Numbered from the stretch's first letter, positions 8,471 to 64,000 are shown. The stretch is 64,000 bases of DNA from Thermoanaerobaculia bacterium (GCA_963809425.1 CAWEJK010000009.1:150526-214525); one strand, 5' to 3'. Translations and numbers: made by a program. Notes: generated from the sequence alone by a model not told the origin.

Positions 8471-9244
8471 TCACCCGCCGGTCCTTTCGTCGTCCACGAA
8501 AGCCCGCACGGCGACGCTCCACCCCGCCCCCGCGGGGGCCGTCCCGACGGCGGCATTCGGTAGGGCGGCCCGCAGCGTTTTGTCGACGCCCGCCTTCTTT
8601 GGAACGAGGACGGGGTGATCGACGATCCGAAGAAACGCGACATCGTTCGGGGCGTCGCCGAGTCCGATCGTCCGGGACGGACGGAGAATCTCGACGAGCC
8701 GCCGCACGGCGTCTGCCTTGTCATGGAGGCCCGAGAGGTGCCAGAAGCGCCCGCCGCGAACCAGTCGAACCCGCGGCGGAAGCGTCGCGGACGAGAGCGC
8801 GGCGGCGTCGTCGCCTGCGGCGATGAACGGAAGGTCGAACTCCCGCGCGCGCGCCGCGGCAGCCTGATCGAGCGGGAGGCCGGTGAGGCGGACCCACTCG
8901 GCGTCGGGGATTTCTTCGATCGAGAAGAGGGGCCGCCCCGTCTGGCGCTTCAGAGCGTCCAGGGTCGCTCGGAGCTCGCGAAGCGGGACGGCCGTCGGCA
9001 GGAGCTCGGTCCCCTTTCTCAGAATTCCCGCGCCGTTCTCGAAAGCCCCGACGCCGCCGGAATCAAGGATCTCGAGCCAGCGCGCGAGCTCGACGCGGGT
9101 CTTACTCGTCAGCGGGACGACCGGAATGCCGCGCATGCTCAAGGCGGCGATCGTCTCACGCGCCTCGCGCGACAGAGTACCGTCCTCCTCGAGGAGGGTG
9201 CCGTCCAGGTCTGTGAAGACGATCGTTGACGACAACTCCTGCAA
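8471..9244 (-). CDS. HAD-IIB mannosyl/glucosyl-3-phosphoglycerate phosphatase
   Basis: Motifs FTDLDGTLL, TSKT, ENGAG, REFDLPF, GGRFWH and GLGDAPND. Confidence 0.85.
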   Translation of the reverse strand: MQELSSTIVFTDLDGTLLEEDGTLSREARETIAALSMRGIPVVPLTSKTRVELARWLEILDSGGVGAFENGAGILRKGTELLPTAVPLRELRATLDALKRQTGRPLFSIEEIPDAEWVRLTGLPLDQAAAARAREFDLPFIAAGDDAAALSSATLPPRVRLVRGGRFWHLSGLHDKADAVRRLVEILRPSRTIGLGDAPNDVAFLRIVDHPVLVPKKAGVDKTLRAALPNAAVGTAPAGAGWSVAVRAFVDDERTGG

Positions 9245-9269
9245 TCTCCTGGGGAGGCTGCGGGAGCGG

Positions 9270-10508
9270 TCAGCGCGCCTTCGCGGCCGCCTTGCCGGGC
9301 TTGGGCGGGGTGGGAGCGGACGCGGGCTTCGCCTGAGCCTTCAAGGCCGCGCGTTTCTGCTTCCAATCCTCCCACACGACGACGAGCGGAGCCGCGATGA
9401 AGATCGAGGAGTACGTCCCGACGATGATGCCGACGATCATCACGAAGGCGAATCCGCGCAGGACTTCGCCTCCGAGGAAGAACAGGACGACGACCACCAC
9501 GAAGGTGAGCACCGAGGTCAGGACCGTCCGCGAGAGCGTCTGGTTGATCGAGGTGTTGACGAGCTCGGGCAGCGGGGTGCGCTTGGACTTCTCGCGGTTC
9601 TCGCGGATCCGGTCGAAGACGACGACCGTGTCGTTCACGGAATAGCCCACGAGCGTGAGGAACGCGGCCACGACCGTGAGCGAGATCTCGAGGTTCAGGA
9701 TCGAGCAGAGGCCGAGCGTCGTCCACGTGTCGTGAATGAGCGCGACGACGGCGGCCGTTCCGAACGACGCCGAGCGGAAGCGGAACGCGATGTAAAGGAG
9801 CATCGCGGCCCACGAGAAGAGGATCGCCCACATGCCCTTTTCGCGGAGGTCCTTTCCGACCTGCGGGCCGACGTTCTCGGCCGAAAGCAGCGTGAACGGG
9901 CCGGCGACGGTCTTCGCTTTGAGCCACTCGGCGGTCGCGGGTGAGATGCCCGCGGTCTTCGCGGCGTCGTCGAGCGAGTGGAACAGCCCCTGCTCCGACC
10001 GCGCCGCGATGAGCGCCTGGACCTCGCGCCCGTACTCGACCTTGGGGTCGGCGTTCGGCCGCGTCGCGAGCTTCTCGGGGTCGTCGGCGATCAGCTTCGC
10101 GAGAAGCGTGTCCGCGCCGTTCAGGTTCAGGTCGAACGCGGTGGCGTTCGCGCCCTCGGGGAAAAGCGACTTCGTGAGCGCCGCCGTCACTTCCTTCGAG
10201 AGGTCGCGGCCTTCCTTCTTTTCGAGCGGGACGCGCAGGAGAACCTGGTTCTTCTCGGGCTTGTCGAAGCGCTGGACCGAGACGACGTTCACGTTCGCGG
10301 CTTCGACGATCTTGCGGACCTGGTCCTCGTCGGGAGTCTTCGAGAACCCGTAGACGATCTGGGCGCCGCCCGTGAAGTCGATGCCGAGCTTCGGGCCGCC
10401 CTTGGCGATCAGCGAGATCGTGCCGATGACGATCGAAAGGATCGACAGCGAAATCGCGATCCACTTGATCTTGAGAAAATCGATGTTCGTCTTGTGAAAG
10501 AGGCGCAC
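9270..10508 (-). CDS. secF: Protein translocase subunit SecF with an enlarged periplasmic domain
   Basis: Motifs LGIDFTGG, VGPQVGKDL, GYSVNDTVVVFDRIRE and GTYSSIFIA. Confidence 0.95.
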   Translation of the reverse strand: MRLFHKTNIDFLKIKWIAISLSILSIVIGTISLIAKGGPKLGIDFTGGAQIVYGFSKTPDEDQVRKIVEAANVNVVSVQRFDKPEKNQVLLRVPLEKKEGRDLSKEVTAALTKSLFPEGANATAFDLNLNGADTLLAKLIADDPEKLATRPNADPKVEYGREVQALIAARSEQGLFHSLDDAAKTAGISPATAEWLKAKTVAGPFTLLSAENVGPQVGKDLREKGMWAILFSWAAMLLYIAFRFRSASFGTAAVVALIHDTWTTLGLCSILNLEISLTVVAAFLTLVGYSVNDTVVVFDRIRENREKSKRTPLPELVNTSINQTLSRTVLTSVLTFVVVVVLFFLGGEVLRGFAFVMIVGIIVGTYSSIFIAAPLVVVWEDWKQKRAALKAQAKPASAPTPPKPGKAAAKAR

Positions 10509-10527
10509 GTTGGCTCCGCTCTTTGGC

Positions 10528-12159: not shown

Positions 12160-12273
12160 GAACGCAACCTCCGGACGCGGGCCCGTCCGGAAGGCGGCAG
12201 GGAGCCACCCGTTCGTCAGGGAGACCGCGGGATGTGCCCGGGCAGCTCCCGGGCGAACCGGCGGAGTCTAGCA
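12158..12273 (-). promoter_or_regulatory. secD leader: extended -10 element plus structured 5' UTR covering the RBS and start codon
   Basis: TGcTAGACT at 12273-12265; three complementary stems between 12158 and 12216 include GGAG of the RBS and part of the GTG start. Confidence 0.5.
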
Positions 12274-12287
12274 GAACCCCGGCCCCC

Positions 12288-16405: not shown

Positions 16406-16419
16406 TCCCTAGTTTCGCA

Positions 16420-17888: not shown

Positions 17889-17894
17889 TCCCGT

Positions 17895-19088: not shown

Positions 19089-19174
19089 ACGGGCTCCCAG
19101 TGTACGTTTCCCCGGCGCGTTGACCCTGAAAAACTAAGGATGCTATGTTCCGGGCCCGTTTTGCAGGAGGCGCA

Positions 19175-19507: not shown

Positions 19508-20084
19508 TCGCACCCGCCGTCCGCGGCCCGTCTTCGTCGCGATAGGGCTTGGCGCGAACCTGGGAGACCGGGAAGAGATTCTTAGAAGGGTAAGAGGGGC
19601 GTTGGCGGAGCATCTGGACGGGCTTCGTTCTTCGTCGCTCTACGAAACGTCCCCAGTCGGCGGCCCTTCTCAGCCCGACTACCTCAATGCGGTCGTCACG
19701 GGTTGGACGAAACTCTCGGCCCGTGCCCTCTTCGCCTTTCTAAGAAAATCCGAATCCGCCGCCGGCAGAAGGAGAGCGCGTGGAGCGCGGAACCTCCCAC
19801 GCCCACTGGACCTCGATCTCCTCCTCTACGGCAACGAGCAAATCCGTTCGCGCGCGCTCACCGTGCCGCACCCGCGGATGACGTCGCGCCTGTTCGTCCT
19901 CGTCCCCCTGGCGGACGTCGCCGCGCGACGCGTCGTGCCCGGAACCGGAAAGACGGTCGCGCGGCTCGTGGCCGAAGCCCGGCTCGACTCGACGGAGCGC
20001 GTCAGACGCGCGAGGCCCGTCAGACGGTCGAAGCGCGGGGAAGGACCCGCGATTCCACCAGGAGCTGGTCGTTCGGCAGCGTGA
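19434..20084 (+). CDS. folK: 2-amino-4-hydroxy-6-hydroxymethyldihydropteridine diphosphokinase
   Basis: Motifs [29 protein letters not shown] and [13 protein letters not shown]. Start uncertain; the nearest in-frame ATG overlaps the upstream gene. Confidence 0.9.
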
Positions 20085-20928
20085 CGCGCGTCCCCGGCGG
20101 CACGGAGGACGTCAGCCAGACGCTGCCGCCGATGACGCAGCCCTTTCCGATGACCGTCTCGCCCCCGAGAATCGTCGCGCCCGCGTAGATGACGACGTCG
20201 TCCTTCACGGTCGGATGGCGCTTCGTCCCGCGGATCAGCTCGCCGCGCTCGTTCTTCGGGAACGAGAGCGCGCCGAGCGTGACTCCCTGGTACAGCTTGA
20301 CGCGGTCGCCGATGTCCGTCGTCTCGCCGATGACCGTTCCGGAGCCGTGGTCGATGAAGAACGACCGGCCGATGCGCGCGCCGGGGTGGATGTCCACGCC
20401 GGTCTCGAGGTGCGCGAACTCGGTCATGATGCGCGGAATCAGCGGCACGCCGAGCACGTGGAGGGCGTGCGCGAGACGGTACGTGAACACGGCCTTCACC
20501 CCCGGATACGCGAGGATGATCTCGTCGAATCCGGTCGCGGCGGGATCGCCGTCGAACGCGGCCCGCACGTCCGCGGCGAGGAGGTCTGCGATCTCGGGCA
20601 GGGTTTCGAAGAAGCGCGTCGTGATTCCCTGGGCATTCGCGCGCGTGCGCCCTCCGTCGGACAGCGCCTTCTCGATCTCGTTCGCGAGGCTCAGGTGAAT
20701 GCGAAAGAGGACGTCCCCGAGGTGGTCGCGCAGGTTCGCGCGATAGAGCACGGTGTGGCCGTAGAAGCCCGGATAGACGACCTCCTGGAGCATGCGCAGG
20801 ATCTCGATGATCTCCTTCTTTTGCGGCTTCGGCGGGGCGTCGATCGCCGAGAGAACAGGCCGGTTCTCCGCCCCCGAAACGATCCGGTCGATGGCGGCGC
20901 GCAGCCTCGTGTCCTCCATGCGACTCAT
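20020..20928 (-). CDS. cysE: Serine O-acetyltransferase
   Basis: Motifs [31 protein letters not shown] and KRHPT. Confidence 0.92.
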
Positions 20929-20932
20929 TCTC

Positions 20933-21808
20933 TCACCGACCGGCCCATCCCCTGAGAAGCTTCCCGGCCTCCTCCTGCGTCTTGCGATTCTCCACGAGAA
21001 AGTCGGGATCGGGCGTCTCGGCGAGGATCTTCTCCAGCATCGCGCGCGCCTCCGCGCGGCGGGAGGACTCGTAGTCCCACATGGCCTCGGCGAGAAACTG
21101 GCGCCCATCCAGATTCCGCGGCCCGGCGCCGACGGCGAGACGGAGGTTCCGGAGCGCCTCCGCGCGCGACGCCCATCCCGTGAAGAACGGAACCGAGGGG
21201 GTCTGGTGGTGGAGGCGCCCGAGCACGCGGTAGCCGCCTCCGCCGTCGTATCCGGGGTCGAGCAGGATCACCGCCTGCGCGTAGTCGCGGATCCTGGCGG
21301 CCGCCCCCTGCCTCACGGCCGCGCTCTTCCCGAAGGCGAGCGCCCACTTTCCCCAGTCCACCGAGGCCCACAGGAACGACGGGACCGCCGCCGGGTTTCC
21401 CTTGACGTAGGGAACGAGCTCCACCGGCGTCGCCTTCCCGAGCTCCCGGCGGCCTTCCCGGCCGGCTTCACGCCGCAGGATGGAGAGGGCCTGCTCGGCG
21501 ACCGTGCGCCCGTCGTCGAAGATCGACCGCTTCGCGACGGAATCGTCCGTCGTGTACTCGCCCTTGAAGTAGAGCGCGCGCATGAGGCGCCAGCGCAGCT
21601 CGAGCGATTCCGGTTCCGCGGCGAGAGCCGCGCGACAGGCGTCGATCGTGAGATCGATCGGGGCGGAAAGAGCGTGCCCGCCGCTCGACCCTTCGGCGCG
21701 GCGAGACCAGAGCCGGTCGATGTCCGCCGGCTTCGACGCGGGCTCGGACGCCGAGAGAAGAGCGGGAGAAAGGGCGAAGAGGAAGGACAGGACGGAGAGG
21801 CGCCGCAT
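20933..21808 (-). CDS. Secreted TPR-like helical protein (TRAP TatT-like)
   Basis: Signal peptide, helical repeats and [18 protein letters not shown]...P motif. Confidence 0.6.
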
Positions 21809-21870
21809 GGCGCCCACTATACTGGCGCGCCCCTTGCGAATAGGCTCACGCTCGAACACGAGGTGCCGCC

Positions 21871-22194
21871 GTGGCCGATCAGGATCCCAAGCCCGACCCC
21901 CAGCCTCCATCCCTCCAGTTTTCGATCGACGATTCGGTCGCGAACGGCGTCTACGTGAATTTCGCGAACATCATCCACAACCCCGCCGAATTCGTTCTCG
22001 ACTTCGGTCGCGTGGTGCCGGGCCGAAACGACGTCCGCGTGCTCTCGCGCGTGCTCACGACGCCCGTCCACGCGAAGCAGCTCCTGAACGCGCTCGCGCA
22101 GAACGTGGCCCTGTACGAGAAGACGTTCGGCGCGATTCGCACCGACTTCGAAGCCCCGCGACCGGGCGGCACCGAGTCCTTTCGACCCAACTGA
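21871..22194 (+). CDS. DUF3467 domain protein
   Basis: VANGVYVNFANIIHNPAEFVLDF...SRVLTTPVHAKQLLNAL..N...YEKTFG. Confidence 0.88.
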   Translation: MADQDPKPDPQPPSLQFSIDDSVANGVYVNFANIIHNPAEFVLDFGRVVPGRNDVRVLSRVLTTPVHAKQLLNALAQNVALYEKTFGAIRTDFEAPRPGGTESFRPN

Positions 22195-22222
22195 CACCTC
22201 GAGACAAGGAAGATCACCACCG

Positions 22223-22765
22223 ATGAACCCGCGAAAGCTCCTCGTTCTCTCCCTCGGACTGTCGCTCGGCCTTTCCGCCGGTTTCTCTGCTGCGGCCGCG
22301 GCCGCTCCGAAGAAATCCGGCGTCCCGGCGCCCACGCCCGCCACGTCCGACTCCGAACGGCGGGCGGCGCCCATCTTCGATTCCGACGCGATCGGGCGGA
22401 GGCAGATCGCCGACTATCAGAAAGTGGCCCAGGACTCCGGGCGCCGGCTTCTCCTCATCTTCGGCACGAACGAATGCGCCCCGTGCCGCGCGTTCAATGG
22501 CGCGATTCACGAAAAGCAGTTCTTCGCGGCGTTCATCAACCAGTTCATCCCGGTTTACGTCGACGTCTCGAGCGGCACGAACGCCTCGCTCCTCGTCGAC
22601 TACAACGTCAACCCGGCCGCCGAACAGCCCGGCATCGTGATGCTGATGCCGGACGCGCGGATCGTGGAGGTCCTCGCGCAGGGCGAGATGGCCGCGCTCA
22701 CCCGGAAGGGCGACGCCGCCGTTCAGGAGTTCTTCCTGGCGCGCTTCCTGAAGACCGAGAAGTAG
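22223..22765 (+). CDS. Secreted thioredoxin-like protein
   Basis: Signal peptide and LLLIFGTNECAPC (CxxC). Confidence 0.7.
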   Translation: MNPRKLLVLSLGLSLGLSAGFSAAAAAAPKKSGVPAPTPATSDSERRAAPIFDSDAIGRRQIADYQKVAQDSGRRLLLIFGTNECAPCRAFNGAIHEKQFFAAFINQFIPVYVDVSSGTNASLLVDYNVNPAAEQPGIVMLMPDARIVEVLAQGEMAALTRKGDAAVQEFFLARFLKTEK

Positions 22766-22812
22766 CGGACCTCGCGGAGCGCGCCCTCCCGCGCTCTGGC
22801 AGAATCGATCCG

Positions 22813-23397
22813 GTGGCATCCCCCAGGAGCGCGGCTCAGCCCGCGCCGGACTCCGGCGACCTGCTGCTCGTGGCCGCCGGGGACAGCGTGGCTCTCACGC
22901 GTCTCGTGACGCGATGGAGTCAGCCTGTCTATGCATTCTTTGAACGAACGCGCGAGCCGTCCGCCGCGACGGAAGCCGCTCTCGAGACGTTCGAGCGGCT
23001 CGTCGCGACCTCGCCCCGCTACGCGCCCGAAGCTTCGTTCTCCTCGTTTCTCTGGGGAATCGCGGCGAATCTCGTCCAGGAGGGCAAGACCGGCGACGTC
23101 CTCGCGATCCCCGCGCCGAAGCTGGCCGAATCCGCGGCGGCCCGGACGGCGCTCGTCCGTTCGGCGATCTCCGCCCTGCCGCCCGCCGAACGCGCGGCCT
23201 TCCTCCTGACTCGCGTCGCGCGTCTGCCCGCGGCCGCGGCCGCCGAGGCTCTCGGCGCCCAGGAAACCGACGTGCGGCGCCGGCTCGTGCGCGCGCTCGA
23301 ATCCCTGCGGACGTCTCTCGTTCCGCTTCTCCAGAGCCCGGCCACGACGATCCCTCCGGGCGCGCCCGACGACGACCCTCCCGGGGCCGCCCCGTGA
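22813..23397 (+). CDS. ECF-type sigma factor (divergent)
   Basis: Region 2-like GDSVALTRLV...FSSFLWGIAAN and region 4-like ALPPAERAAFLL...AEALG...VRRRLVRA; overlaps the anti-sigma start. Confidence 0.7.
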   Translation: MASPRSAAQPAPDSGDLLLVAAGDSVALTRLVTRWSQPVYAFFERTREPSAATEAALETFERLVATSPRYAPEASFSSFLWGIAANLVQEGKTGDVLAIPAPKLAESAAARTALVRSAISALPPAERAAFLLTRVARLPAAAAAEALGAQETDVRRRLVRALESLRTSLVPLLQSPATTIPPGAPDDDPPGAAP

Positions 23398-24365
23398 CGT
23401 GCGCCGAGCTGCGCGAGCGCATCGTCGACTCGGCATCGGCATCGCAGGGCGGCCACGCTCCCGTCGTCGCGCATCTCGACGAGTGCGCGGATTGCCGTGC
23501 CGCGGCGCGCGAGTACGGGGCTCTCGACCGGCTCGTCCGGCCCGCGCTTCCCCCCTCGCCACCAGCCGATTTCGAGGCGCGCCTGCGCGTTCGCCTGTCG
23601 GCCGTATCCCGAAACCCCGTCTCGAGCGCGTGGCTTCTGATTGGCGCGGCGGCCGTGCTCGCCCTCGCGGCCTTCCTCGTGCCGCGCTTCTTTCGGGGAC
23701 GCCCGAAGCCGGGTCCCCCGGCGCCCGCGGAGACCGCCGGCGCTCTCGTCCCTGCCGCGCCGGCCGCCCCGGCGCCGGACGCGCCTCCGCCCGACATCGT
23801 CGCCGTACGCTCGACCCCGATCTCTTTTCAAACGACCCCGCTCAGCGCGGAGGACAAGGCGGAGGCCGCCCTTCTCCACGATTTCAATTTCCTCAATTCC
23901 TTCCGGACGCTCGCGCACCTCGACGCGTTCTTTTCCGAGCCCGTCGGCCCACGCGCGCCGGTGCCGGTTCCAGCGGGTGGCTTTCCGTCCCGTCCGCCCG
24001 ATACGCCCGATGCGATCGCCGGGCGCCTTCTCGACTGGCAGCGGGCCCCGAGGACGGAGCGCGTCCGCCTCTCCGAGCTCGAAAAGTCGTTTCGCGATCG
24101 CCCCGAGGAGGAACGCTCGCTCCTCGAGGATCGCTGGACGCTCGTCCGCGACTTCTCCGACGACCAGCGCGCCGGCCTGCGCCGGCTCGCGAGCCGCCTG
24201 GACGACCTCGACTCGCGCGCGCGCGACCGGCTCGAGTCCGAGATCCGGCTCATCGGGCGCCTCCCGAAGGAGCAGCGCGCGGCGCGCTGGCGCGCTCTCC
24301 CCTTTGCCAGGCCGCTCACCGGCCAGGAGCTCGCGAGCGCCGAGAGGCTCCTTCTCTCGCGCTGA
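23394..24365 (+). CDS. Zinc-finger anti-sigma factor with TM helix and helical periplasmic domain
   Basis: MTCAELRE...HLDECADC (HxxxCxxC), one TM segment, Pro-rich linker and a W/R-rich helical C-terminus. Confidence 0.72.
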   Translation: MTCAELRERIVDSASASQGGHAPVVAHLDECADCRAAAREYGALDRLVRPALPPSPPADFEARLRVRLSAVSRNPVSSAWLLIGAAAVLALAAFLVPRFFRGRPKPGPPAPAETAGALVPAAPAAPAPDAPPPDIVAVRSTPISFQTTPLSAEDKAEAALLHDFNFLNSFRTLAHLDAFFSEPVGPRAPVPVPAGGFPSRPPDTPDAIAGRLLDWQRAPRTERVRLSELEKSFRDRPEEERSLLEDRWTLVRDFSDDQRAGLRRLASRLDDLDSRARDRLESEIRLIGRLPKEQRAARWRALPFARPLTGQELASAERLLLSR

Positions 24366-24387
24366 CGGTCCCGTAGACTCCCGGACG

Positions 24388-26550
<2,163 letters not shown>

Positions 26551-26557
26551 AAGGCGT

Positions 26558-27352
26558 TCAGCGTTCGGCCGCCGCGAGCGGCGAGGCGAGCGCGGCCTGC
26601 GCTTCGAGCTTCGCGATGAGCGCCGCGCGTCGCGCCGCGTCGAGGTTCTCGGACCCGGCCCTCAGAATGTCCGGATTGCCGTCGATCGAGCGGCGAAACA
26701 GGAAATCCTGCACCGCTTTCGCGTCCACCCGCGTCGTCTCACGGAGCAACCTGGCCACCGCCCCGATCATGACGGGGTTCTGCTCGTCGAGGAGCGCTTC
26801 CGCGAGGGTCAGCACGGCCGACGCTTCCCGGTGGCCGTCCGTCACGAGACCGGTCGCCGCGAGCACGGCAAGGTGCCGCTTGCCGACGCTCTTCAGCTTC
26901 GCCCACTTCTTCACGACCGCCATTTTCGCGGGCTCGAGGCCCAGCGCCGGAGCGGCGATGCGCGCGCCGAGCACCTCGGCGACTTCAAGATCGTCGGCCA
27001 CCGCGCTCCACTTCTCGACCTTCGCGAACAGACCAGAAGTGAACTCCTTCTGGTGCCGGTCGAGGAGCTCCAGCGCGACGAGGATCTCCTCGCGCACCTT
27101 GCGGACTACCGCCGCATCCACGAGCGCGAGAGCCACCGCGTAGTCGATCGCGGGTTTCTTCGCGTGGGTGTCACGCGCGATCGATCGCACGAAGGAGGAA
27201 CGGACTCCGAGAGCCTTGAGCGGGCTCTTGGGAGCAGCCCCCTTGGCCTTGTCTCCACGATCTGAGCGTTCTGAGCGTCCGTCCAGACGTGAATCCAGAG
27301 CGACCCGGATGTCCTTGAGTATCAGCGCGGCAGAAGGTGTGGCCTTGACCAT
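26558..27352 (-). CDS. DNA alkylation repair (AlkD-like, HEAT-repeat) protein, divergent
   Basis: LGVRSSFVRSIA, REE..VA and GAVARLLRE follow the AlkD-family pattern; lies downstream of the repair radical SAM gene. Confidence 0.55.
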   Translation of the reverse strand: MVKATPSAALILKDIRVALDSRLDGRSERSDRGDKAKGAAPKSPLKALGVRSSFVRSIARDTHAKKPAIDYAVALALVDAAVVRKVREEILVALELLDRHQKEFTSGLFAKVEKWSAVADDLEVAEVLGARIAAPALGLEPAKMAVVKKWAKLKSVGKRHLAVLAATGLVTDGHREASAVLTLAEALLDEQNPVMIGAVARLLRETTRVDAKAVQDFLFRRSIDGNPDILRAGSENLDAARRAALIAKLEAQAALASPLAAAER

Positions 27353-27413
27353 ACGCAATTGCCGATTCTAGCATACCGACTGATCACTTTCGGTCCCCTC
27401 CACACCCCGAATC

Positions 27414-28424
27414 TCACCGAAACGCCCCCGTGCTTGACCCATAAGCCGTTCCATTGCAAGCGGTTGCAAAGAGAGGCGTCTGGATGGCACGCGTGCCGAT
27501 CGGCCGTCCGCGCAGGGTGACGAATCCGCCCGCCCGGCCGACCTGGACGCCAAGCCGCCTGAGGTCGGTTGCATCGGAAAGAGACCCGCGAGCCCGCGTC
27601 GAGAGAATTCGCTCGACGGCGAGCGGTCCGAACCCGGGGACCCGCTGAAGCTCCTCCCGGCTGGCCGTCGTGAGCTCGACCGGGAACCGTCCCGGATTCG
27701 CGAGCGCCCACGCGAGCTTCGGGTCGTGGTCGAGCGGAAGATGGCCATCCTTGCCATATACGAGCTCGTCGGCGGTGAAACCGTATTCACGCAACAGGTG
27801 ATCCGCCTGGATGAGACGCTTCTTCTCGAGCCCTTCCGCGAACGACAGGGGCGCGGGGGCCAGGCGCGCCGAGACCCGCCGGGCCTCGCGTACGGCCGTG
27901 GCCGCGTTCCGGTCCGGCTCGAGAAGGGCGACTCCCTTTGCCTCGCTCTCTCGCGGGGCGTGCTCGACGAGCGCCCGCTGGCACGGCGCCTCGAGGTTGT
28001 AGGAAACACGATCCACGAGGCGCACGAGGCGTTCGATCTGGCCCGGCTCGGCGCCTGCGAGCGCCTTCGCGTGAAGGTAGCCGCGGTAACCGTGCGTGAA
28101 CCGCAGCGTCTCGACGAGCTCGAGCATGCGCTTCATCGCGACCACGGGGTCTTTGGGAATGCCGCTCGTGACGAAGAGGCCGTCGCACCAGCCGCGGCGA
28201 AAAGCCGTCATGAAGAGGCGCGCGAGGCTCGCGGGCTCGAGCGCGTGCCGTGGAAGGTCGCGCTCCGCCCGCATCGGGCAGTAGTCACAGGAGAACCGGC
28301 AGGCGTCCGCGAGGAGAATGCGGAAGATCCGGCGATTCCCCACGCCCGGCACGATCAGCTCGCGGATGTTGATTCGATCGAGCACGCGTTCGGCGACTTT
28401 TCTGACCGCAGCCATCAGCTTCAC
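27414..28424 (-). CDS. Putative DNA modification/repair radical SAM protein with C-terminal HhH
   Basis: CRFSCDYC cluster motif, GLFVTSG, GYLHAK, QADHLLREYGF, DPKLAWAL..P..FPVEL and ELQRVPGFG. Confidence 0.85.
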   Translation of the reverse strand: MKLMAAVRKVAERVLDRINIRELIVPGVGNRRIFRILLADACRFSCDYCPMRAERDLPRHALEPASLARLFMTAFRRGWCDGLFVTSGIPKDPVVAMKRMLELVETLRFTHGYRGYLHAKALAGAEPGQIERLVRLVDRVSYNLEAPCQRALVEHAPRESEAKGVALLEPDRNAATAVREARRVSARLAPAPLSFAEGLEKKRLIQADHLLREYGFTADELVYGKDGHLPLDHDPKLAWALANPGRFPVELTTASREELQRVPGFGPLAVERILSTRARGSLSDATDLRRLGVQVGRAGGFVTLRGRPIGTRAIQTPLFATACNGTAYGSSTGAFR

Positions 28425-28436
28425 CCCACCCAGCGC

Positions 28437-28465
28437 AAGTTAGGCGTAAGTTTGGCGAAAGTCAA
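28437..28465 (-). promoter_or_regulatory. Sigma70-like promoter with an internal direct repeat
   Basis: TTGACT-N17-TAACTT; the spacer reads TTCGCC-AAACT-TACGCC. Confidence 0.55.
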
Positions 28466-28492
28466 GGGGGGAGGAGAAACCCTGGACGGGCC

Positions 28493-29614
28493 TCAGCCTT
28501 CGGATCGCGCGATGACGCCGCCCCCGAGGACCACCTCCGGGCGGCTCGGGTCGAAGAAGACGGCCGACTGTCCCGGCGCGGCCGCGCGGACGGGCTCCTC
28601 GAACTCCAGGCGGCCGCGGCCGCCGTCCTCGAGCGTGAGCAAGGCCGCCTGCTCGGGGTGGCGCGAACGGATGCGAGCAAGCACCCTCAGCGTCGACGCG
28701 TCGCGGCGAACCATGCGCACACTCACGCTTTCGAGGAGGATTTTCTTGGAAAGAAGAGAGGGTGCCGACCCCACGACCACACGTGAGTCTTCCGGTGAGG
28801 TCGAAATGACGTAGAGGGGCTCCCGCGAGGAGACTCCGAGCCCGCGCCGCTGGCCGACCGTGTAGCCGAACGTTCCCTCGTGCGTTCCGACCCTCTCTCC
28901 CCTTTCATTGGAAATCTCCCCGGGCCGCGCGCCCGCGAGTGCCGGAAGAGGAATGCCGAGACCCGGCGCCTCCCGCCGGATGAATTCGGCGGGCGTCGAG
29001 CCGCTCGGCACGAAGCAGATCTCCTGCGAGTCCGGCTTGTCCCAGTTCGGAAGCCCGGCCTCGCGCGCGATCTCGCGCACCTCGGGCTTCGTCAGCTCGC
29101 CGAGCGGAAACCGGGCGCGGGAAAGCTGCTCTTCCGTGAGATCGTAGAGAAAGTACGACTGATCCCGCGCGCGGTCTCGCGCGCGAAGCAGGCGAGGCGC
29201 CCCGGTGACCTCGTCCGCCTCGATGCGCGCGTAGTGCCCGGTCGCGACCGCCTCGCACTCGAGCGCCGCCGCCCTCCGAAGCAGGCTCTTGAACTTGACC
29301 TCCGTGTTGCACACCGTGCACGGAATCGGCGTCTTCCCCTCGAGGTAGCTCGTGATGAAAGGCTTCACGACCGCCTCCGTGAAGTTCTCCTCGAGGTTCA
29401 GCACGAAATGCGGAACGCCGATCATGGCGGCCGCGCGGCGGGCGACCGAAAGGTCGTCGAGCGTGCAGCAGCGGCCCTCGTTCGCGCCCGTCCCGTCCCG
29501 ATCGTGGTTCCAGAGGTGCATCGACAGGCCGACGACGTCCGCCCCCTCGCGGCGGAGGAGGAGGGCGGCCACGGATGAGTCCACGCCCCCGGACATCGCG
29601 ACGGCGATACGCAT
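28493..29614 (-). CDS. mnmA: tRNA 2-thiouridine(34) synthase
   Basis: Motifs AMSGGVDSS, TPIPC..CN..VKF, ATGHYAR, DQSYFL, KPDSQEICF, YTVGQRRGLG and PGQSAVF. Confidence 0.97.
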   Translation of the reverse strand: MRIAVAMSGGVDSSVAALLLRREGADVVGLSMHLWNHDRDGTGANEGRCCTLDDLSVARRAAAMIGVPHFVLNLEENFTEAVVKPFITSYLEGKTPIPCTVCNTEVKFKSLLRRAAALECEAVATGHYARIEADEVTGAPRLLRARDRARDQSYFLYDLTEEQLSRARFPLGELTKPEVREIAREAGLPNWDKPDSQEICFVPSGSTPAEFIRREAPGLGIPLPALAGARPGEISNERGERVGTHEGTFGYTVGQRRGLGVSSREPLYVISTSPEDSRVVVGSAPSLLSKKILLESVSVRMVRRDASTLRVLARIRSRHPEQAALLTLEDGGRGRLEFEEPVRAAAPGQSAVFFDPSRPEVVLGGGVIARSEG

Positions 29615-29618
29615 CGCG

Positions 29619-30749
29619 TCAGGCCTTCGGCGTCCGCACGGCCAGGGTCTCGTCCGTCTTCCGGATCTCGAGGGCGAGGACGTTCGCCCGGCGCCACGAC
29701 GCGACGAGGTTCGGCATGGCCTCGAGCGGCACGGCGGCCGCGCCGCCTTGCACGAGCGCCGCCTGAAAAGCCTCGGTCAGCCCTTTCGTTTCGGCGTCCT
29801 CGACGGGGCTCTTCGCGGCCGCCTCGGCCGCTGCGCGCCAGGCGTCGAGGTACGCCGCGGACGAGATGCGCTCGCGCCAGAAGCGGCTCAGGAAGGCCGC
29901 GCGGGCCGAGAGCGTTCCCGCCCGCAGCCGTCCCTCCCGCAGCCTCTTCGCCGCCTCGTACTGCACCCACGCCTCGCGCTTCCAGGCCCCGAGCATTCCC
30001 GCGCGCGGGTCGAGCGTCTTGAGGCGCGCGCGCCAGGCCGCCGCATCGACCGGAATCCGCCGCGCGGCCGCGAGCTCCAGGCGCGTCGCGCCGATCGAGA
30101 CGAGCTGGCTCACGATCTCCGGCCGGCCGCGCAGCGAGCCCGTGAGCGCGAAGGCGGCGCGGAGCGATTCCTCCGCGCGCGCGTCCTTCGCGGCGGCCCT
30201 CGCCTCGGCCCGCCCCACGAGCACGCGCGCGAGCTGCATCTGTCCGGAGAGGTTCGGCACGGGCGCCGCGTATAGCTTCGAGACGTCCACCGTCCATTCG
30301 GGCGCGGGCCCCGAGAGAAGTCTTCTTTCGATCGCGTCGAGCACCGGCGCGTGCGCGGCGAAAAACGACGCGACCGGGGCCGGCGGAGGTTCGGGAAGGC
30401 CCTCGGCCTTCGCGGCCTGCGAGTCCGCCCACTTCTCGAGGGGCGCGCGGACCCCGTCCCACTCGGTCTTTTTCGGCCGGCTCATCTCCTCGTCCAGGGG
30501 CTGCTCGCCGCGGGGGCGCATCTCGATCCCGAGCGTCCGCCCCGCGTCCTCGAGGGCGTGCGCCGTCTCGTTCGTGGGATGCGCCGGGAATCGCTCCGTC
30601 AGGAGCTCGAGGCGTCCGAACGACGCCTCCCACGCGGTCTCCGCCGCCCGCTCGCGGCGCGCGGCCCTGAGCGACCCTGCCGCCAGCCAGACGAGCGACG
30701 CCCCCAGGAGGGCGAGAACGAGAAATCCGATTGTCTTACCGATCCGCAT
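29619..30749 (-). CDS. Hypothetical membrane-anchored helical protein
   Basis: N-terminal TM segment after MRIGKTIG, GAGG RBS, ends 4 bp before the mnmA start. Confidence 0.65.
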   Translation of the reverse strand: MRIGKTIGFLVLALLGASLVWLAAGSLRAARRERAAETAWEASFGRLELLTERFPAHPTNETAHALEDAGRTLGIEMRPRGEQPLDEEMSRPKKTEWDGVRAPLEKWADSQAAKAEGLPEPPPAPVASFFAAHAPVLDAIERRLLSGPAPEWTVDVSKLYAAPVPNLSGQMQLARVLVGRAEARAAAKDARAEESLRAAFALTGSLRGRPEIVSQLVSIGATRLELAAARRIPVDAAAWRARLKTLDPRAGMLGAWKREAWVQYEAAKRLREGRLRAGTLSARAAFLSRFWRERISSAAYLDAWRAAAEAAAKSPVEDAETKGLTEAFQAALVQGGAAAVPLEAMPNLVASWRRANVLALEIRKTDETLAVRTPKA

Positions 30750-30801
30750 GCAGGTGCCTCCGACTATTCCGGACGGGGATGATACGGGGCAGAATGCATC
30801 C

Positions 30802-31095
30802 ATGAAACGCCCCGCCAGACTATCCGCGAAGGACGTCGACGCCCGGCTCTCCGCGCTCCCCGGCTGGAATCGCACGAAAGGAAAGCTCCACCGCACCTTC
30901 ACGTTCACCGACTTCTCCGAGGCGTTCGCCTTCATGACGCGCGCCGCGCTCGCCGCCGAGAAGCTCGATCACCACCCCGACTGGTCGAACGTGTGGAACA
31001 AGGTGACGGTGGACCTCAACACGCACGACGCGGGCGGGATCACGGAGCTCGATTTCGAGCTCGCCGTGGAAATGAATCGAATAGCGGGGGATTGA
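30802..31095 (+). CDS. Pterin-4-alpha-carbinolamine dehydratase
   Basis: Motifs F.DFSEAFAFM, AEKLDHHPDWSNVWNKV and THDAGGITELD. Confidence 0.95.
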   Translation: MKRPARLSAKDVDARLSALPGWNRTKGKLHRTFTFTDFSEAFAFMTRAALAAEKLDHHPDWSNVWNKVTVDLNTHDAGGITELDFELAVEMNRIAGD

Positions 31096-31338
31096 AGAAT
31101 TTTGCTGAAGACCCTCGCGCGTCGAGCGGGTGCCGAAGCGAAGGGAGCGGCAGATTTCTTAGAAGGTAAGAAGGGCAAGGCCGGCGCACCGGCTGCCGCT
31201 ACGCTCAATGTGCCGATTTTCCCGCATCACGGGATCTGACCCATGCCGCCGCCGACCTCGTCGCGCGCCGCCCTCGCTCCTGTCTTAATTACTTTCTAAG
31301 CAGATCTTAGGTGCTCTTCGGACGCGGTTCGAAGGGAC

Positions 31339-31354
31339 TGGCACGGTGTGTGAA
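31339..31354 (+). promoter_or_regulatory. Possible sigma54 promoter
   Basis: TGGCACG-GTGT-GTGAA: perfect -24 box but a variant -12 box, 28 bp upstream of ATG 31382. Confidence 0.4.
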
Positions 31355-31381
31355 GAGCGGCGCTCGGGAGACCCGACCGCC

Positions 31382-31666
31382 ATGTCCCAGAAATGCGTGG
31401 AAATGATCTTTGGAAGGCTCGCGACCGACGAAGAGCTGCGCCAGGAATTCCGGCGGGATCCAAAGGGGACCCTCGGCAAACTCGCCGCCTGCGGCGTGGA
31501 GCTGACGACGGCCGAGCGTGACGCTCTTCTCGCAACGAACGGAGCGCTCTTCGAGCGCCTCGCCGAAACCATCGACCCTCGCCTCCAGAAAGCGAGCCTG
31601 CGCCCGGAGGAGGCGCGAAGGCTTGGTTCCGAAAGGAGCCCCGACGCCGAAAGGAGACCTTCGTGA
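31382..31666 (+). CDS. Small NHLP-clan/Os1348-like protein
   Basis: MSQKCVEMIFGRLATDEELRQEFRRDP...GVELTTAERDAL resembles nitrile-hydratase-like leader peptides; GTGA overlap with the TolC gene. Confidence 0.65.
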   Translation: MSQKCVEMIFGRLATDEELRQEFRRDPKGTLGKLAACGVELTTAERDALLATNGALFERLAETIDPRLQKASLRPEEARRLGSERSPDAERRPS

Positions 31667-33276
31667 TCCGAAAGGTCCTCGCACTGACCCTATGGCTTCT
31701 CGCGCTTCCACTCGGGGCGCAGTCCGTGAACGATCCCGCCCTTCCGCCCGGCGTGCCGCTCTCGCTCGCGGACGCGACGGCGCGCGCTCTCGCCCGCAAC
31801 CACGACATCGCGTTCGAGCGCGACGCGTTCCGGATCACGGACGCGACGGTTCTCCGCACCGAGGGCTCGTACGATCCGTCCTTCCACCTCGACGCGCGCT
31901 ACCGCAACCGCACGGATCCCGTGAATTCGCTCCTGTCGGGCGCGCCGGCGGGCGAGATCTCGCCGTCGGCCGAAGGCTTTGCGGCCACGGCGAGCGTCGG
32001 CCAGCTCCTGCCGACCGGGGGCGCGGTGAGCGTGTCGGCGAGCGGATCGCGCGACCTCACGAACAACTTCATCGCGATCCTGTCCCCCGCGTGGAGCACC
32101 TCCGTCGGCATCGACCTGCGCCAGCCGCTCCTCCAGGGGCTCTCGCTGGATCCGGCGCGGCGCGCCCTGCGCATCGCCCGGATCGACCGCGGGCGCGGCT
32201 CCGCGAGCCTGCGCCGCACCGTGACCGAGACCGTGGCCTCCGTCGAGCGCGCGTACTGGACGCTCGTGGCGGCCCGGCGCGACGTGCTCGTGCGCGAGGC
32301 GAGCGTGAAGCTCGCCGGGGACCAGCGCGACGACACGAAGACGAAGATCGAGGTCGGAACGCTCGCCGAGTCGGAGATCGCGCAGCCGATTGCCGAGCTC
32401 GAGCGCCGCAAGGGCGACCTCTACGCGTCGCAGGAATCCGCCCGCCGGGCCGAGCTCCTCCTCAAGCTTCTCCTCCTGGACGACGAGAACGATCCGGTCT
32501 GGAACCAGCGGCTGCTCCCGACCGACGAGCCGGAGACCGACCTTCGCCGCGTCGATCTCGCGGCCGCGCTGAAGGATGCCGACGCGCGCCGGCCCGAGAT
32601 CGCCGAGGCTTCGGCCCGGGTGGAGGAGCGCGACGTGGACCTCGATCTCGCGAGGAGCCGCATCCTTCCGCAAGTCGACCTCGTGGCCTCGTACGCGCGC
32701 CGCGGCCTCGCGGGCGACCTGAACCCGAATGCGCCCACGACCGGCTTCACGGGGCAGCCCGTCGTCGTGCCGGACGCGATGAACGGCGGCCTCGGGCGGT
32801 CGTTCGGCACGATCGGGGAGGGACGATTCCCCGACGCGTCGATCGGCGTCTCCGTGACGGTGCCGATCCTGAACCGCGCCGCTCGCGGCGACGCCGCGAT
32901 CGCGAAGGCGCAGAAGAGCCAGGCCGTGACGACGCTTTCCCAGCAGAAGCAGCGCGTCGCGGTCGAGGTGCGCAATGCCGCGTTGACGCTCGAGACCGCG
33001 GCCGCGCGCATCGAGGCCGCGAAGGCGGGGCGCGCGGCTGCCGAGACGCAGCTCCGCGCCGAGCAGGAGCGTTACGGCGTCGGCCTGTCCACGAATTTCT
33101 TCGTTCTCACCCGCCAGAACGAGCTCGCGCAGGCCTCTCTCACCGAGACCGCGGCGCTCACCGATTACCGCAAGGCACTGACCGACTTCGCGCGTTCCAC
33201 GGGAATTCTCCTCGACGAGCGCCGCATCGAGATCCGGGACGACGCTCCGGCCTTCCAGGCCGCCGGGGGAAAGTGA
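31663..33276 (+). CDS. TolC family outer-membrane efflux protein
   Basis: Signal peptide, LSLADA..RAL..N, QPLLQG, VERAYW, VPILNR and GLSTNFFVL..Q. Confidence 0.92.
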   Translation: MIRKVLALTLWLLALPLGAQSVNDPALPPGVPLSLADATARALARNHDIAFERDAFRITDATVLRTEGSYDPSFHLDARYRNRTDPVNSLLSGAPAGEISPSAEGFAATASVGQLLPTGGAVSVSASGSRDLTNNFIAILSPAWSTSVGIDLRQPLLQGLSLDPARRALRIARIDRGRGSASLRRTVTETVASVERAYWTLVAARRDVLVREASVKLAGDQRDDTKTKIEVGTLAESEIAQPIAELERRKGDLYASQESARRAELLLKLLLLDDENDPVWNQRLLPTDEPETDLRRVDLAAALKDADARRPEIAEASARVEERDVDLDLARSRILPQVDLVASYARRGLAGDLNPNAPTTGFTGQPVVVPDAMNGGLGRSFGTIGEGRFPDASIGVSVTVPILNRAARGDAAIAKAQKSQAVTTLSQQKQRVAVEVRNAALTLETAAARIEAAKAGRAAAETQLRAEQERYGVGLSTNFFVLTRQNELAQASLTETAALTDYRKALTDFARSTGILLDERRIEIRDDAPAFQAAGGK

Positions 33277-33278
33277 AC

Positions 33279-34337: not shown

Positions 34338-34358
34338 GCGGCGAAAGGAAACCATCCC

Positions 34359-37493: not shown

Positions 37494-37502
37494 AGTCGCG
37501 AC

Positions 37503-51353: not shown

Positions 51354-51373
51354 GGATGCCTTCCCGGGAACGG

Positions 51374-53998: not shown

Positions 53999-53999
53999 G

Positions 54000-56051: not shown

Positions 56052-56099
56052 GAACTTCACCTCAAAGGATGACGTGTCGAGGACGACTCTTGCGGATGG

Positions 56100-56608: not shown

Positions 56609-56737
56609 TTGGCAGGCTCCTGGCCGATTCTACGACGCCGCCGCGGAACGCCCTGATTCAGATGCTCCATGCGGACGCCGTCCCCGCGGACCCACGTTCG
56701 AACTGGAAGCTGGAAACGGCTTCCTTGAGGAGGTTTC

Positions 56738-57196: not shown

Positions 57197-57248
57197 TCCG
57201 CGGTCCGCGAGGCCCAGGGCCCTCAGTAGGGCCGGCTCGCTCGCGTCG

Positions 57249-57827: not shown

Positions 57828-57870
57828 CCGGAGCCGATTCTAAGCCGTCCCGTACGGTTCGCGCGCGCCC

Positions 57871-59403: not shown

Positions 59404-59420
59404 CGGCGCTGCCGCCGGGC

Positions 59421-60434: not shown

Positions 60435-60449
60435 TTCCGCCTCCTCCGT

Positions 60450-61545
<1,096 letters not shown>

Positions 61546-61546
61546 G

Positions 61547-62809: not shown

Positions 62810-62810
62810 G

Positions 62811-63824
62811 TCAGGCCACCTTGTCCACGACGACCGGGTTCAGGAACGGCATCTTCGCGCGCAGCTCCACCCCGACTTTCTCGATGAGCTGGCCCCTCTC
62901 CCTCTCGCGGGTCGCCTCGAACTCGGGGCGCCCGTTCCGGTTCTCCTCGATCCACTTCTCGGCGTAGACACCGTCCTGGATCTCCTGGAGGATCTTCTTC
63001 ATCTCGCCGCGGGTCGCCTCGGTCACGATGCGCGGGCCGGCCGTGTAGTCGCCGTGCTCGGCCGTGTCGCTGATCGAGTAGCGCATGTAGTTCAGGCCGC
63101 CGCGGTACATGAGGTCCACGATGAGCTTCAGCTCGTGCAGGCATTCGAAGTACGCGATCTCCGGCTGGTAGCCCGCGTCGACGAGCGTCTGGAAGCCGGC
63201 CTTCACGAGCGCGGACGTGCCGCCGCAGAGGACCGCCTGCTCGCCGAAGAGATCCGTCTCGGTCTCCTCGGCGAAGGTCGTCTCCAGGACTCCCGCGCGC
63301 GTCGCGCCGAGCGCCTTCGCGTACGCGAGCGCGTCCTCGCGCGCGTGGCCGCTCGCGTTCTGCTCGACCGCGAGGAGCGCGGGCGTGCCCTCGCCTTCCA
63401 CGAACAGCTCGCGCACGCGGTGGCCCGGCGCCTTCGGGGCGACCATCGAGACGTCCACGTCGGCGGACGGCACGATCTGTCCGAAGCGGATGTTGAAGCC
63501 GTGCGCGAACATGAGCGTCTTTCCGGCTTTCATGTGCGGCGCGACGGACGAGTCGTAGAGCTTCTTCTGGCCCGTGTCCGGCGTCAGGATCATGACGACG
63601 TCGGCGCGCTTCGCGGCCTCGTCCACGCTCAGCACGGTCAGCCCGTCCGCCCTCGCCTTCGCGGCGGACTTCGACGTCGCGTGGAGCCCGACGACCACGG
63701 ACACGCCGCTGTCCCTGAGGTTCAGCGCGTGCGCGTGACCCTGGCTGCCGTACCCGATGATCGCGACCGTCCGCCCCTTGAGGCGGGAAATGTCGGCGTC
63801 CTTGTCGTACCAGATCGTGGCCAT
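62811..63824 (-). CDS. ilvC: Ketol-acid reductoisomerase
   Basis: Motifs [29 protein letters not shown] and SISDTAEHG. Confidence 0.97.
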
Positions 63825-63878
63825 CTCAAACTCCCTTTGCGTATCGCCTGTCGTTTCCTGCTGCGTTCTCGCGCGCCG

Positions 63879-64000
63879 TCAGGCCCTTTTTTCCTTGAAA
63901 GTGAAGAGGGATTCGGGCGAAGCGAACGCGCGGGCCTCGCCGAAATCGCGAACGCCGTGCACGTCGACGAGTCGCATCAATTGCTTTCTCAGAAGATCCG
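63879..64000 (-). CDS. ilvN: C-terminus of a probable acetolactate synthase small subunit (partial)
   Basis: Hand translation DLLRKQLMRLVDVHGVRD...KRA* resembles the KQL.KL.DV end of the ACT domain; lies just upstream of ilvC. Confidence 0.6.
   Translation of the reverse strand, partial: DLLRKQLMRLVDVHGVRDFGEARAFASPESLFTFKEKRA

Follow-up and report, generated by a model that had tools for sequence, protein, structure and literature searches.

An asymmetric AT-rich word arranged in inward-facing pairs within and between genes of a Thermoanaerobaculia genome

The 64,000-nucleotide stretch of DNA analyzed here (the window) belongs to an uncultured soil member of the Thermoanaerobaculia (Acidobacteriota), whose assembly (G000) comprises 3.52 Mb in 13 contigs and is 88.5% complete. 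The window has a G+C content of 67-74%, in a genome of 69% GC, and among its genes are folK, mnmA, the gene of an RND transporter and two adjacent ABC ATPase genes, in and between which copies of an AT-rich word, TTCTNAGAA, were observed. An earlier note on the window, made from the sequence alone, had placed eight copies at positions 9016, 19579, 19738, 31156, 37904, 39287, 39510 and 63986, and all eight were confirmed as exact. Its estimate of under one expected copy per window was also supported, as 100 dinucleotide shuffles gave a mean of 0.28 copies and a largest value of 2. The oriented form TTCTNAGAARG matched nine times in the window against 0.05 expected. Genome-wide analyses indicated that these copies belong to a longer, asymmetric site that occurs overwhelmingly in inward-facing pairs, is written into coding sequence as well as spacers, and is retained at orthologous positions in related species.

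To define the site, a position weight matrix (PWM) was built and then refined on the whole genome. The first matrix returned 465 sites, and the refined matrix, at a score of at least 18, returned 601 sites, a density of about one per 6 kb. The refined motif, W-TTTCTT-N-GAA-RG-KRAA after a purine run, has about 17 conserved positions and is laid out as some 20 purine-rich bases, W-T, TTCTT, a free base, GAA, R, G, K, R, A, A and a short G-rich tail, with C almost excluded from the purine strand. At the degenerate position 5 of TTCTTNGAA the base frequencies were A 0.52, C 0.26, T 0.14 and G 0.07. The information profile is patchy (TTTCTT, GAA, G, AA) with a free position in the middle of the site, and in this it looks like a set of protein-DNA contacts rather than a guide-RNA match. 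There are 252 copies of TTCTNAGAA in the genome, with T (109), A (104), C (23) or G (16) at the center, and the center base tracks the orientation of the flanks. Since the refined PWM is asymmetric, palindromic TTCTNAGAA is a special case of an oriented and longer word, and the description of the motif as an interrupted palindrome does not carry over to the genome as a whole. Below, one asymmetric site is called an arm, being an R-arm (+) in the purine-strand orientation and a Y-arm (-) in the other. The sites of the window are as follows, with scores from the refined whole-genome PWM:

8912-8920, plus strand: R-arm core, weak, left member of pair 1; GGGGATTTCTTCGATCGAGAAGAGGGG; score 12.0; in the predicted minus-strand gene 8471-9244
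9016-9024, minus strand: Y-arm core, weak, right member of pair 1; exact match TTCTCAGAA; score 12.4
19579-19587, plus strand: R-arm core in folK, reading E-I-L-R-R-V-R-G; score 30.7
19738-19746, minus strand: Y-arm core in folK, reading F-A-F-L-R-K-S; score 28.2; 159 bp from 19579
28743-28751, plus strand: arm in mnmA (a minus-strand gene), reading S-L-L-S-K-K-I-L-L-E; score 25.7
28904-28912, minus strand: decayed partner arm in mnmA, reading G-E-I-S-N-E-R-G-E-R; score 8.8
31156-31164, plus strand: R-arm of an intergenic pair; score 40.8
31294-31302, minus strand: Y-arm of the same intergenic pair; score 32.4; 138 bp from 31156
35824-35832, plus strand: collapsed remnant of a unit in the cytoplasmic loop of the RND transporter; RRKEEKEDNSKSRGFY; score 8.4
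37904-37912, minus strand: single site, reading L-L-S-K-K-V-G-T; score 16.4; in gene 37503-38507
39253-39307, plus strand: purine run and R-arm (core 39287-39295) in the C-terminal part of the first ABC ATPase; GREEKRKERKEEKDFLEGR; score 45.2
39465-39473, minus strand: first of two tandem Y-arms, in the Ser/Pro-rich N-terminal extension of the second ABC ATPase; score 42.9
39510-39518, minus strand: second tandem Y-arm, followed by a pyrimidine run; exact match; score 47.9
63891-63899, plus strand: R-arm, weak, just past the ilvN-side gene end; score 16.2
63986-63994, minus strand: Y-arm, weak, partner of 63891 at 95 bp; exact match; score 13.9

The refined PWM recovered all six of the plus-then-minus pairs that had been proposed in the window, three of them with weak arms in this genome. 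The 64 kb are syntenic in five other species (G003, G007, G017, G019 and G044), with coding DNA 69-87% identical, and comparison with these relatives indicated that window sites are retained in orthologous sequence, a few of them being species-specific. Across the five relatives, the site blocks were identical at 516 of 612 positions (84.3%), compared with 5138 of 6875 (74.7%) in flanks 46-150 bp away. The position orthologous to the weak arm at 8912 scored 20.9 in G019 and that orthologous to 9016 scored 22.6 in G007, and the arm that has decayed at 28904 was strong in all five relatives (scores 26.9-36.8). In folK, site 19579 was present in G019 and G044, and 19738 was scored in the window and every relative (6/6). 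The sites at 28743, 28904, 39287, 39465 and 39510 were each scored in five of the six genomes; 39287 and 39465 were both found in the window and four of the five relatives, G044 having no colinear alignment at 39287. At the single site 37904, the block CTTTC(T/C)AAGAA(A/G)GT(A/G)GGA(A/T)C was kept in 5/5 relatives. The intergenic R-arm at 31156 was scored in the window, G019 and G044 (3/6), with other sequence at that place in G017, G007 and G003, and TAAAT(T/C)ACCTTCTAAGAAAT at its partner, 31294, was recognizable in all six genomes, imperfectly in G003.

Two further conserved blocks were observed around this intergenic pair (window 31190-31350). One, CTCAA(T/G)GTG(T/G)CGATT, lies in the pair's interior and is conserved in all six species compared; the other, TGGCACGG(C/T)(G/A)(T/C)GTGAA(A/G)AGCG, lies downstream of the pair and is likewise conserved in the six. 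At its start, the downstream block resembles the -24 element of a sigma-54 promoter.

The enrichment of the word was also observed under a null model that preserves coding. Genes were taken from our own simple gene caller, which made 3119 predictions covering 88.9% of the genome; the caller is crude and some predicted genes resemble wrong-frame open reading frames (ORFs), so that the genic and intergenic shares given below are approximate. When synonymous codons were shuffled within each of the 3119 predicted genes, the codon-aware control that had been suggested for this motif, TTCTNAGAA was found 131 times in the real genes and 4.80 +/- 1.87 times in the shuffled ones (largest 9 in 60 shuffles). 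TTCTTNGAARG, treated in the same way, gave 200 copies against 13.7 +/- 3.2.

The arrangement of neighboring sites followed a strict orientation rule. With the refined matrix (score at least 18), 179 neighbors 20-300 bp apart were inward-facing ('+-') and eight were outward-facing ('-+'), so that the non-random orientation and spacing anticipated from the window were borne out genome-wide; tandem neighbors within 300 bp numbered 33 ('++') and 36 ('--'). The first matrix gave a comparable picture within the same distance ('+-' 131, '-+' 3, '++' 15, '--' 18). Among the 154 apparent singles (78 '+' and 76 '-'), a weak partner with a score of at least 6 was present inward of 59 and outward of two. 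Some ends carry two arms, the order '+--' being found in 13 units and '++-' in 11. A further 14 '+...-' neighbor pairs stand 300-6000 bp apart and enclose ordinary genes; five of these intervals were translated, and three were read by eye as encoding MiaB, a hydrolase and LexA.

The spacings of the pairs lay between 36 and 289 bp and were most often close to 75. In intergenic pairs they were narrowly distributed (median 83 bp between cores, interquartile range 76-122, 64% within 60-100 bp), and in pairs inside genes they were broad, with a median of 132 bp. The spacings had no periodicity of 10-11 bp (n*R^2 = 1.3 at 10.5 bp), which speaks against rigid short-range looping. No codon phasing was found over all pairs. 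Among intragenic pairs, spacings of 0, 1 and 2 modulo 3 numbered 35, 16 and 37; the depletion of the second class probably reflects that only certain combinations of frames are open through both arms.

The sequence enclosed by a pair is arbitrary. Comparison of 125 interiors produced six marginal matches, and alignment of 20 canonical intergenic units yielded no conserved interior column. Orthologous interiors were colinear in every comparison made between species. In 131 pairs, the identity between true partners was no higher than that between shuffled partners (z -0.3 for the outer flank, -0.3 for the core and -0.7 for the inner flank). As partners are no more alike than unrelated arms, pairing between the arms is not what has been conserved; this independence is what separate recognition of each arm by a protein predicts, and is not a prediction of a selected stem. 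The interiors of intergenic pairs had 71.8% G+C, compared with 66.9% for the intergenic background and 65% for the outer flanks, an excess compatible with GC-biased conversion or with a structural demand.

Many of the pairs lie inside genes. Pfam matches named 20 host genes of units, including those for a TrmA-like methyltransferase, MnmE, DapB, PheT, DnaX, RNase R, AspRS, a Ser/Thr kinase, RecG, aconitase and an M1 peptidase. In CysRS, two tandem arms and one partner arm surround the DALR domain. The functions of CysRS, AspRS, PheT and DnaX are essential, and the presence of units inside such genes makes routine cutting, excision or inversion at the arms implausible. The arms occupy all three reading frames, in which they read D-F-L-E-G-E, F/L-L-R-R or I-S-L-K-G, and the opposite arm reads S-S-P-S-K-K, L-P-F-K-E or H-L-L-R-N. 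The frame in which the TAG of the motif would be met carries TTCTTTGAA or TTCTTCGAA instead and reads I-S-L-K-G. This use of three frames with avoidance of the stop indicated that selection acts on the DNA word under coding constraint. We rejected the possibility that the word serves as a three-frame stop, since its intragenic copies avoid the stop and the function therefore could not be general.

Comparison of orthologues revealed how the arms had entered coding sequence. In mnmA, the seven closest orthologues hold both arms at the same codons, with AT-rich codons such as TTA, GAA, GGT, GGA and AGA kept and no gap in either arm, whereas seven more distant orthologues have unrelated GC-rich codons at these positions. 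The position of 28904 reads I-F-L-E-G-G-E-R in five of the seven closest loci, IVLEGGKS in L005 and IFLEGGGR in L008. This pair encloses the enzyme's conserved core. The Y-arm of dapB (L-L-S-K-K-I-P) came by substitution and was present in all six genomes of the genus that were compared. The R-arm lies about 100 bp away across conserved sequence, within an insertion of 7-26 residues that is absent from seven other genera; it was present in four of the six genomes of the genus, and a recognizable form occurs in a sister genus. As one arm of dapB lies in an insertion and the other is a substitution, arms can arise singly and not as parts of one inserted element.

At other loci the pair comes with added length. 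In G019, G017 and G044, the RND transporter has about 82-85 bp inserted in frame, including an R-arm, in the loop where the window has its collapsed remnant. In the corresponding gene of G007 (L120-L121, window ~35800-35900) we observed frame shifts around an insertion of about 183 bp containing a GC-rich palindrome, which may be genuine damage to the gene or may stem from an indel error in a long-read assembly. Glu/Lys-rich and Ser/Pro-rich loops have been added to CysRS and the RND pump, and the Pfam domain matches of RNase R (the RNB domain) and aconitase have extra length where the pair lies. The residues of MnmA, DapB and FolK have also been altered by the motif.

The junction of the two ABC ATPase genes, which are separate in the window (38504-40476), had a length of 37-381 bp across 29 loci from 28 genomes, with a collapsed 'solo' form in L095. 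In G002 (L101 646-2481), both ATPases are fused into one ORF of 611 residues in which the motif unit forms the linker ...EEKEEEKVKDFLEGEK...SPLLLSKKILSSSSSS.... By eye, the same fusion was also seen in L099, L100 and L102, and in the species with fused genes the first ATPase is without the C-terminal segment YPRPLVEI...LHVRG. Elsewhere in the G000 genome we noted long ORFs uniting domains that normally belong to different proteins; they join ABC_tran to a PMT glycosyltransferase (C12:166939-170106, L144), NamZ to MobB (C13:436278-438005, L150), DHquinase_I to shikimate dehydrogenase (C13:367929-369488, L149) and a HisZ-like domain to HisG (C13:366298-367932, L158 299-1933). In L144, L150 and L149 a motif pair lies in or near the domain junction or within the second part, and the units may promote or mark gene fusion. 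Hosts and neighbors related to tRNA or translation were frequent (mnmA, mnmE, miaB, trmA-like, rsmE, prmA, pheT, aspS, cysS, valS, AlaX-like and RNase R) in a raw tally, uncorrected for gene length or conservation.

The view, formed from the window, that most copies lie inside genes had to be revised for the genome, in which sites are enriched in intergenic DNA. There, 193 of the 465 sites from the first matrix (41.5%) were intergenic, compared with 11.3% of random positions, and 201 were deep inside predicted genes; overall, 58% were genic and 42% intergenic. The 179 refined pairs comprised 88 in a single gene, 53 intergenic and 38 straddling a gene end. R-arms accumulate near stop codons, between positions -25 and +75 nt, and the TAG of the motif is itself the stop codon of eleven genes. 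Flanking-gene orientations of intergenic pairs resembled the background. The units are scattered randomly along the contigs (coefficient of variation, CV, 1.2). Singles had no replichore bias (81/154 agreed with the local GC skew), and those inside genes had no preference for the transcribed strand (28 purine-sense and 18 pyrimidine-sense). This neutrality points to a function that is exercised at the level of DNA and is strand-symmetric.

The motif was restricted to two genera among the genomes searched, which were samples of their groups, so that an absence below means not found in those searched. With one mismatch or none, the 15-mer TTCTTAGAAGGTGAA had 102 copies in G000, 54-250 in 24/24 other genomes of the genus and 0-1 in 16 genomes of two other families, a tally that includes G025 (one match). 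Exact copies numbered 15-73 in 10/10 genomes of the genus; in the rest of the class, none was found in 139 of 140 genomes and one in the remaining genome. The degenerate 13-mer TCTTNGAARGKRA had 169 copies in G000, 106-269 in 11/11 other genomes of the genus, 12-71 in 8/8 genomes of one sister genus and 0-7 in 21 genomes of eight other genera, with controls giving 0-4. In the sister genus, TCTTCGAA was the commonest form among the matches listed, several of which were convergent pairs. This restriction to a lineage, with 'dialects' in the center base, fits co-evolution of the word with a reader.

Based on these data, we tentatively favor the interpretation that the motif is a lineage-specific, DNA-level signal whose arms are bound, not cut, by a sequence-specific protein, the inward-facing pair forming one unit under purifying selection. 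The earlier suggestion of a selected chromosome-wide signal was supported by the enrichment over the codon null, the orientation counts of 179 and 8, the orthologous retention, and the replacement of codons in mnmA and dapB. The functional unit would consist of two arms with their purine strands facing each other, enclosing 40-280 bp of arbitrary sequence. Each arm would be bound without cleavage by the protein, and the two inward-facing arms would be read together by a two-fold symmetric assembly, e.g., a flexible dimer bridging or capping the segment between them. Arms would be kept by purifying selection, and new ones would be gained singly, either by point substitution where the protein tolerates it or where short purine-rich stretches are inserted into loops, linkers, spacers or the ends of genes. 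Either of the functions that had been named for the word, an uptake sequence or paired sites for a nucleoid-organizing or looping protein, may apply.

Several observations weigh against this interpretation. No candidate for the reader protein was found. The pair spacing is without the 10-11 bp periodicity that a rigid protein-mediated loop below 150 bp would be expected to show, and the units have neither the regular spacing nor the origin-proximal clustering of some chromosome-organizing sites. The number of copies differs 2.5-fold between genomes of the genus and 6-fold between those of the sister genus, and a spread of this kind would suit drive, or an element in expansion, at least as well as a stable regulon. 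In addition, the narrow size of the intergenic pairs could just as well be a mark left by a single inserted element in the ancestor.

Still more tentatively, the units may represent an undescribed class of genome-wide 'punctuation', an obligately paired, dyad-symmetric signal that a dedicated lineage-specific protein would read and whose benefit or drive would suffice for codons to be overwritten, and loops added, in essential enzymes throughout a genus. If so, it would be either the first uptake-type self-recognition signal outside the Proteobacteria or a new nucleoid-organizing system that caps short DNA segments, with ready-made linkers for fusing neighboring genes as a side effect.

The alternative that withstood these data best, although we think it unlikely, is an uptake-type signal like the DNA uptake sequence (DUS) or uptake signal sequence (USS), in which a competence receptor would prefer arm-bearing DNA, and biased uptake with homologous recombination (molecular drive) would spread the word. 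The two genera differ in the preferred center base, and DUS dialects are reportedly known, being named in the title of a published paper. Both orientations of the present word are equally common and its placement along the contigs is random, as this alternative would have it. Its entry into coding sequence, through substitutions at positions that are permissive and poorly conserved, and in several frames, follows the pattern that Findlay and Redfield (PMC2817400) report for USS and DUS in coding sequence, and its intergenic enrichment and the pile-up of R-arms past stop codons have a counterpart in remarks on DUS in PMC2397512. However, according to PMC2397512, the members of known DUS pairs stand no more than 21 nt from each other and make up terminator stems, and the present pairs are 36-290 bp apart, convergent only and without co-variation. 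The density of 601 sites in 3.52 Mb is also far lower than that of known uptake sequences, which number 1471, 765 and 1892 in three genomes with 1657-2065 ORFs according to PMC2817400. ComEC is present, but it was found in 37/41 genomes of the family and in all 10 genera, with or without the motif, and so does not discriminate. An uptake signal would also leave the pairing geometry unexplained, and uptake is not known to demand two inward-facing copies.

Less probable again is a relic of a miniature inverted-repeat transposable element (MITE) of about 130 bp, which would have spread in the ancestor of the two genera and whose terminal inverted repeats would have been exapted and conserved while the interiors drifted. 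This alternative accounts for the narrow size of the intergenic units, for ends that each form a long imperfect inverted repeat of purine run and core, and for the interspecies variation in copy number. It would also explain why whole units vary between species as in-frame insertions (the RND loop, the ABC junction and its collapsed form in L095), and the double-armed ends recall those transposon ends that carry multiple transposase-binding sites. It does not readily explain why the interiors are unrelated, why both mnmA arms replace ancestral codons without a change in length around a conserved enzyme core, or why the dapB arms arose separately. No transposase lies between the kb-spaced arms, no match to the RAYT/Y1 transposase family (PF01797) was found in the 88.5% complete G000 genome, and no target-site duplication was evident at the unit ends, where the central TTA/TAA is inverted and not direct. 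Given the unique interiors, the substitution-type arms and the missing transposase between arms, we rejected an active MITE family.

Unrelated ends were likewise found on the one multicopy DDE insertion sequence observed in the genus. This is a 1340-bp DDE_Tnp_1 element of G010 that is present in nine equal-scoring copies, three of which were compared (L131, L134 and L135) and were 99.9% identical; G019 has one related match, and in G000 the end of a contig holds a fragment (C3:130935-131060). The ends of this element, CTAGCAGGCTGCTGAA, also led us to discard an IS5-like origin, which a likeness of GAAGGTG to IS5 ends had suggested. Regarding carriage by phages, a 19-mer scan of viral contigs produced a single chance match, in a contig of 42% GC.

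We consider it improbable that the word is linked to methylation in the manner of HIP1, with its core recognized by an orphan DNA methyltransferase or by a methyl-reading protein and its abundance maintained for a chromosome-wide epigenetic or repair-related role. According to PMC5861425, HIP1 is 15-300-fold over-represented and is conserved within and between ORFs. The present word has similar over-representation and conservation, and its core is palindromic in both dialects (TTCTNAGAA, and the sister-genus form, which contains CTTCGAAG). HIP1 is reportedly also linked to methyltransferases. The conserved site is, however, asymmetric and much longer than a typical methyltransferase target, and its obligate convergent pairing has no HIP1 counterpart. 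The one methyltransferase family tested, PF01555 (N6/N4), did not track the motif: it was not found in G000, and was present in 7/11 other genomes of the genus and 0/8 of the sister genus.

An element that acts at the RNA level is more improbable still. Under this alternative the purine and pyrimidine arms would form a long stem in transcripts, as an RNase III site, a stabilizer or the flank of a bidirectional terminator. Convergence does place a purine arm first and a pyrimidine arm second in the transcript of either strand, R-arms are concentrated around stop codons, and the minimum-free-energy fold paired both arms in 72 of the 88 units of at most 130 bp. However, there is no excess complementarity between true partners, and the interiors of these units are not unusually structured (mean z -0.24; intergenic units -0.04), the intergenic value also being our reason for rejecting a terminator. 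Roughly one pair in two is intragenic, enclosing conserved coding sequence of as much as 280 nt, singles have no sense or antisense bias, and Rfam had no match in the window at gathering scores. With arms that lack co-variation, ordinary interior structure and no strand bias, a selected hairpin is probably not the explanation.

Recombination sites, at which an invertase, resolvase or transposase would flip or excise the segment between the arms, are the least probable of these alternatives: inverted arms around a short segment do have the geometry of invertible elements, and the collapsed junction of L095 looks as if an interior had been deleted between cores, but 88 of the 179 pairs lie in single genes, some essential, where inversion or excision would destroy the product, interiors were colinear in all orthologues compared, and no associated recombinase was found. 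Contigs from public runs that fell on window positions 19550-39549 were short, low-depth pieces, with joints that had sides of less than 30 bases or led to unrelated places, several of them via the motif. A type IB topoisomerase, considered because of the CCCTT in the arms, was dropped after PF01028 was found in 0/41 genomes of the family.

Few genome-wide words are known to be kept by selection or drive, such as Chi, the FtsK-orienting polar sequences (KOPS), DUS/USS and HIP1, and each has been informative on DNA transactions. A full-text literature search for the present word and its complement returned, among the matches listed, none on bacterial repeats as judged by titles and abstracts; no search by the name Thermoanaerobaculia was made. 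Like the DUS of Neisseriaceae and the USS of Pasteurellaceae, the word is short and lineage-specific, has hundreds of copies in both orientations, is enriched intergenically and just past stop codons, and occupies permissive positions when in coding sequence (as described in PMC2817400 and PMC2397512). Known DUS/USS differ in acting as single copies, their inverted pairs, with members at most 21 nt apart, serving as terminator stems (PMC2397512), whereas the present unit is an inward-facing pair 36-290 bp apart with an unrelated interior, has a several-fold lower density and belongs to Acidobacteriota. HIP1 of cyanobacteria (GCGATCGC) is likewise a hyper-abundant, lineage-specific word in and between genes that is conserved in orthologues and for which selection was inferred and the function was long unknown (PMC5861425), but it is a symmetric GC-rich octamer without pairing rules and with a reported periodicity of 10-90 kb. 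The present word, by comparison, is asymmetric, AT-rich in a genome of 69% GC and obligately paired, and its units are randomly spaced.

Rickettsia palindromic elements, PARCELs and Correia-type MITEs are spread as whole inserted copies with related interiors. Our units resemble these in being inverted-repeat units of about 100-150 bp in genes, with in-frame, low-complexity loops (the RND loop, the ABC linker and RNase R), and differ from them in that interiors are unique and many arms were made by substitution around pre-existing conserved coding sequence. Repetitive extragenic palindromic sequences (REPs) are, as the name says, extragenic; each is a GC-rich hairpin and a RAYT gene stands alongside. 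The doublets of REPs, REPINs, are similarly dispersed and inverted, with a spacer of tens of bases and hundreds of lineage-specific copies, but half of the present pairs are intragenic and their arms are AT-rich and not hairpins, in a genome where PF01797 had no match. The attC sites of integrons, which stand in one orientation in cassette arrays beside an integrase and depend on pairing of their ends, share with our units the conserved inverted ends, the variable center and a similar total length; the present units are instead dispersed, intragenic and without co-variation of partners.

The word is set apart by the asymmetry of its site, by a convergent pairing that is obligate and encloses arbitrary sequence, and by the imprint it leaves on essential proteins, and its grammar of two inward-facing asymmetric arms with an arbitrary interior matches none of the known words compared here. 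The contrast between a high-copy genus, a low-copy sister genus and empty neighbors provides a handle for a search for the reader by phylogenetic profiling, and the system as a whole is a natural experiment on the co-evolution of a DNA-level signal and a proteome.

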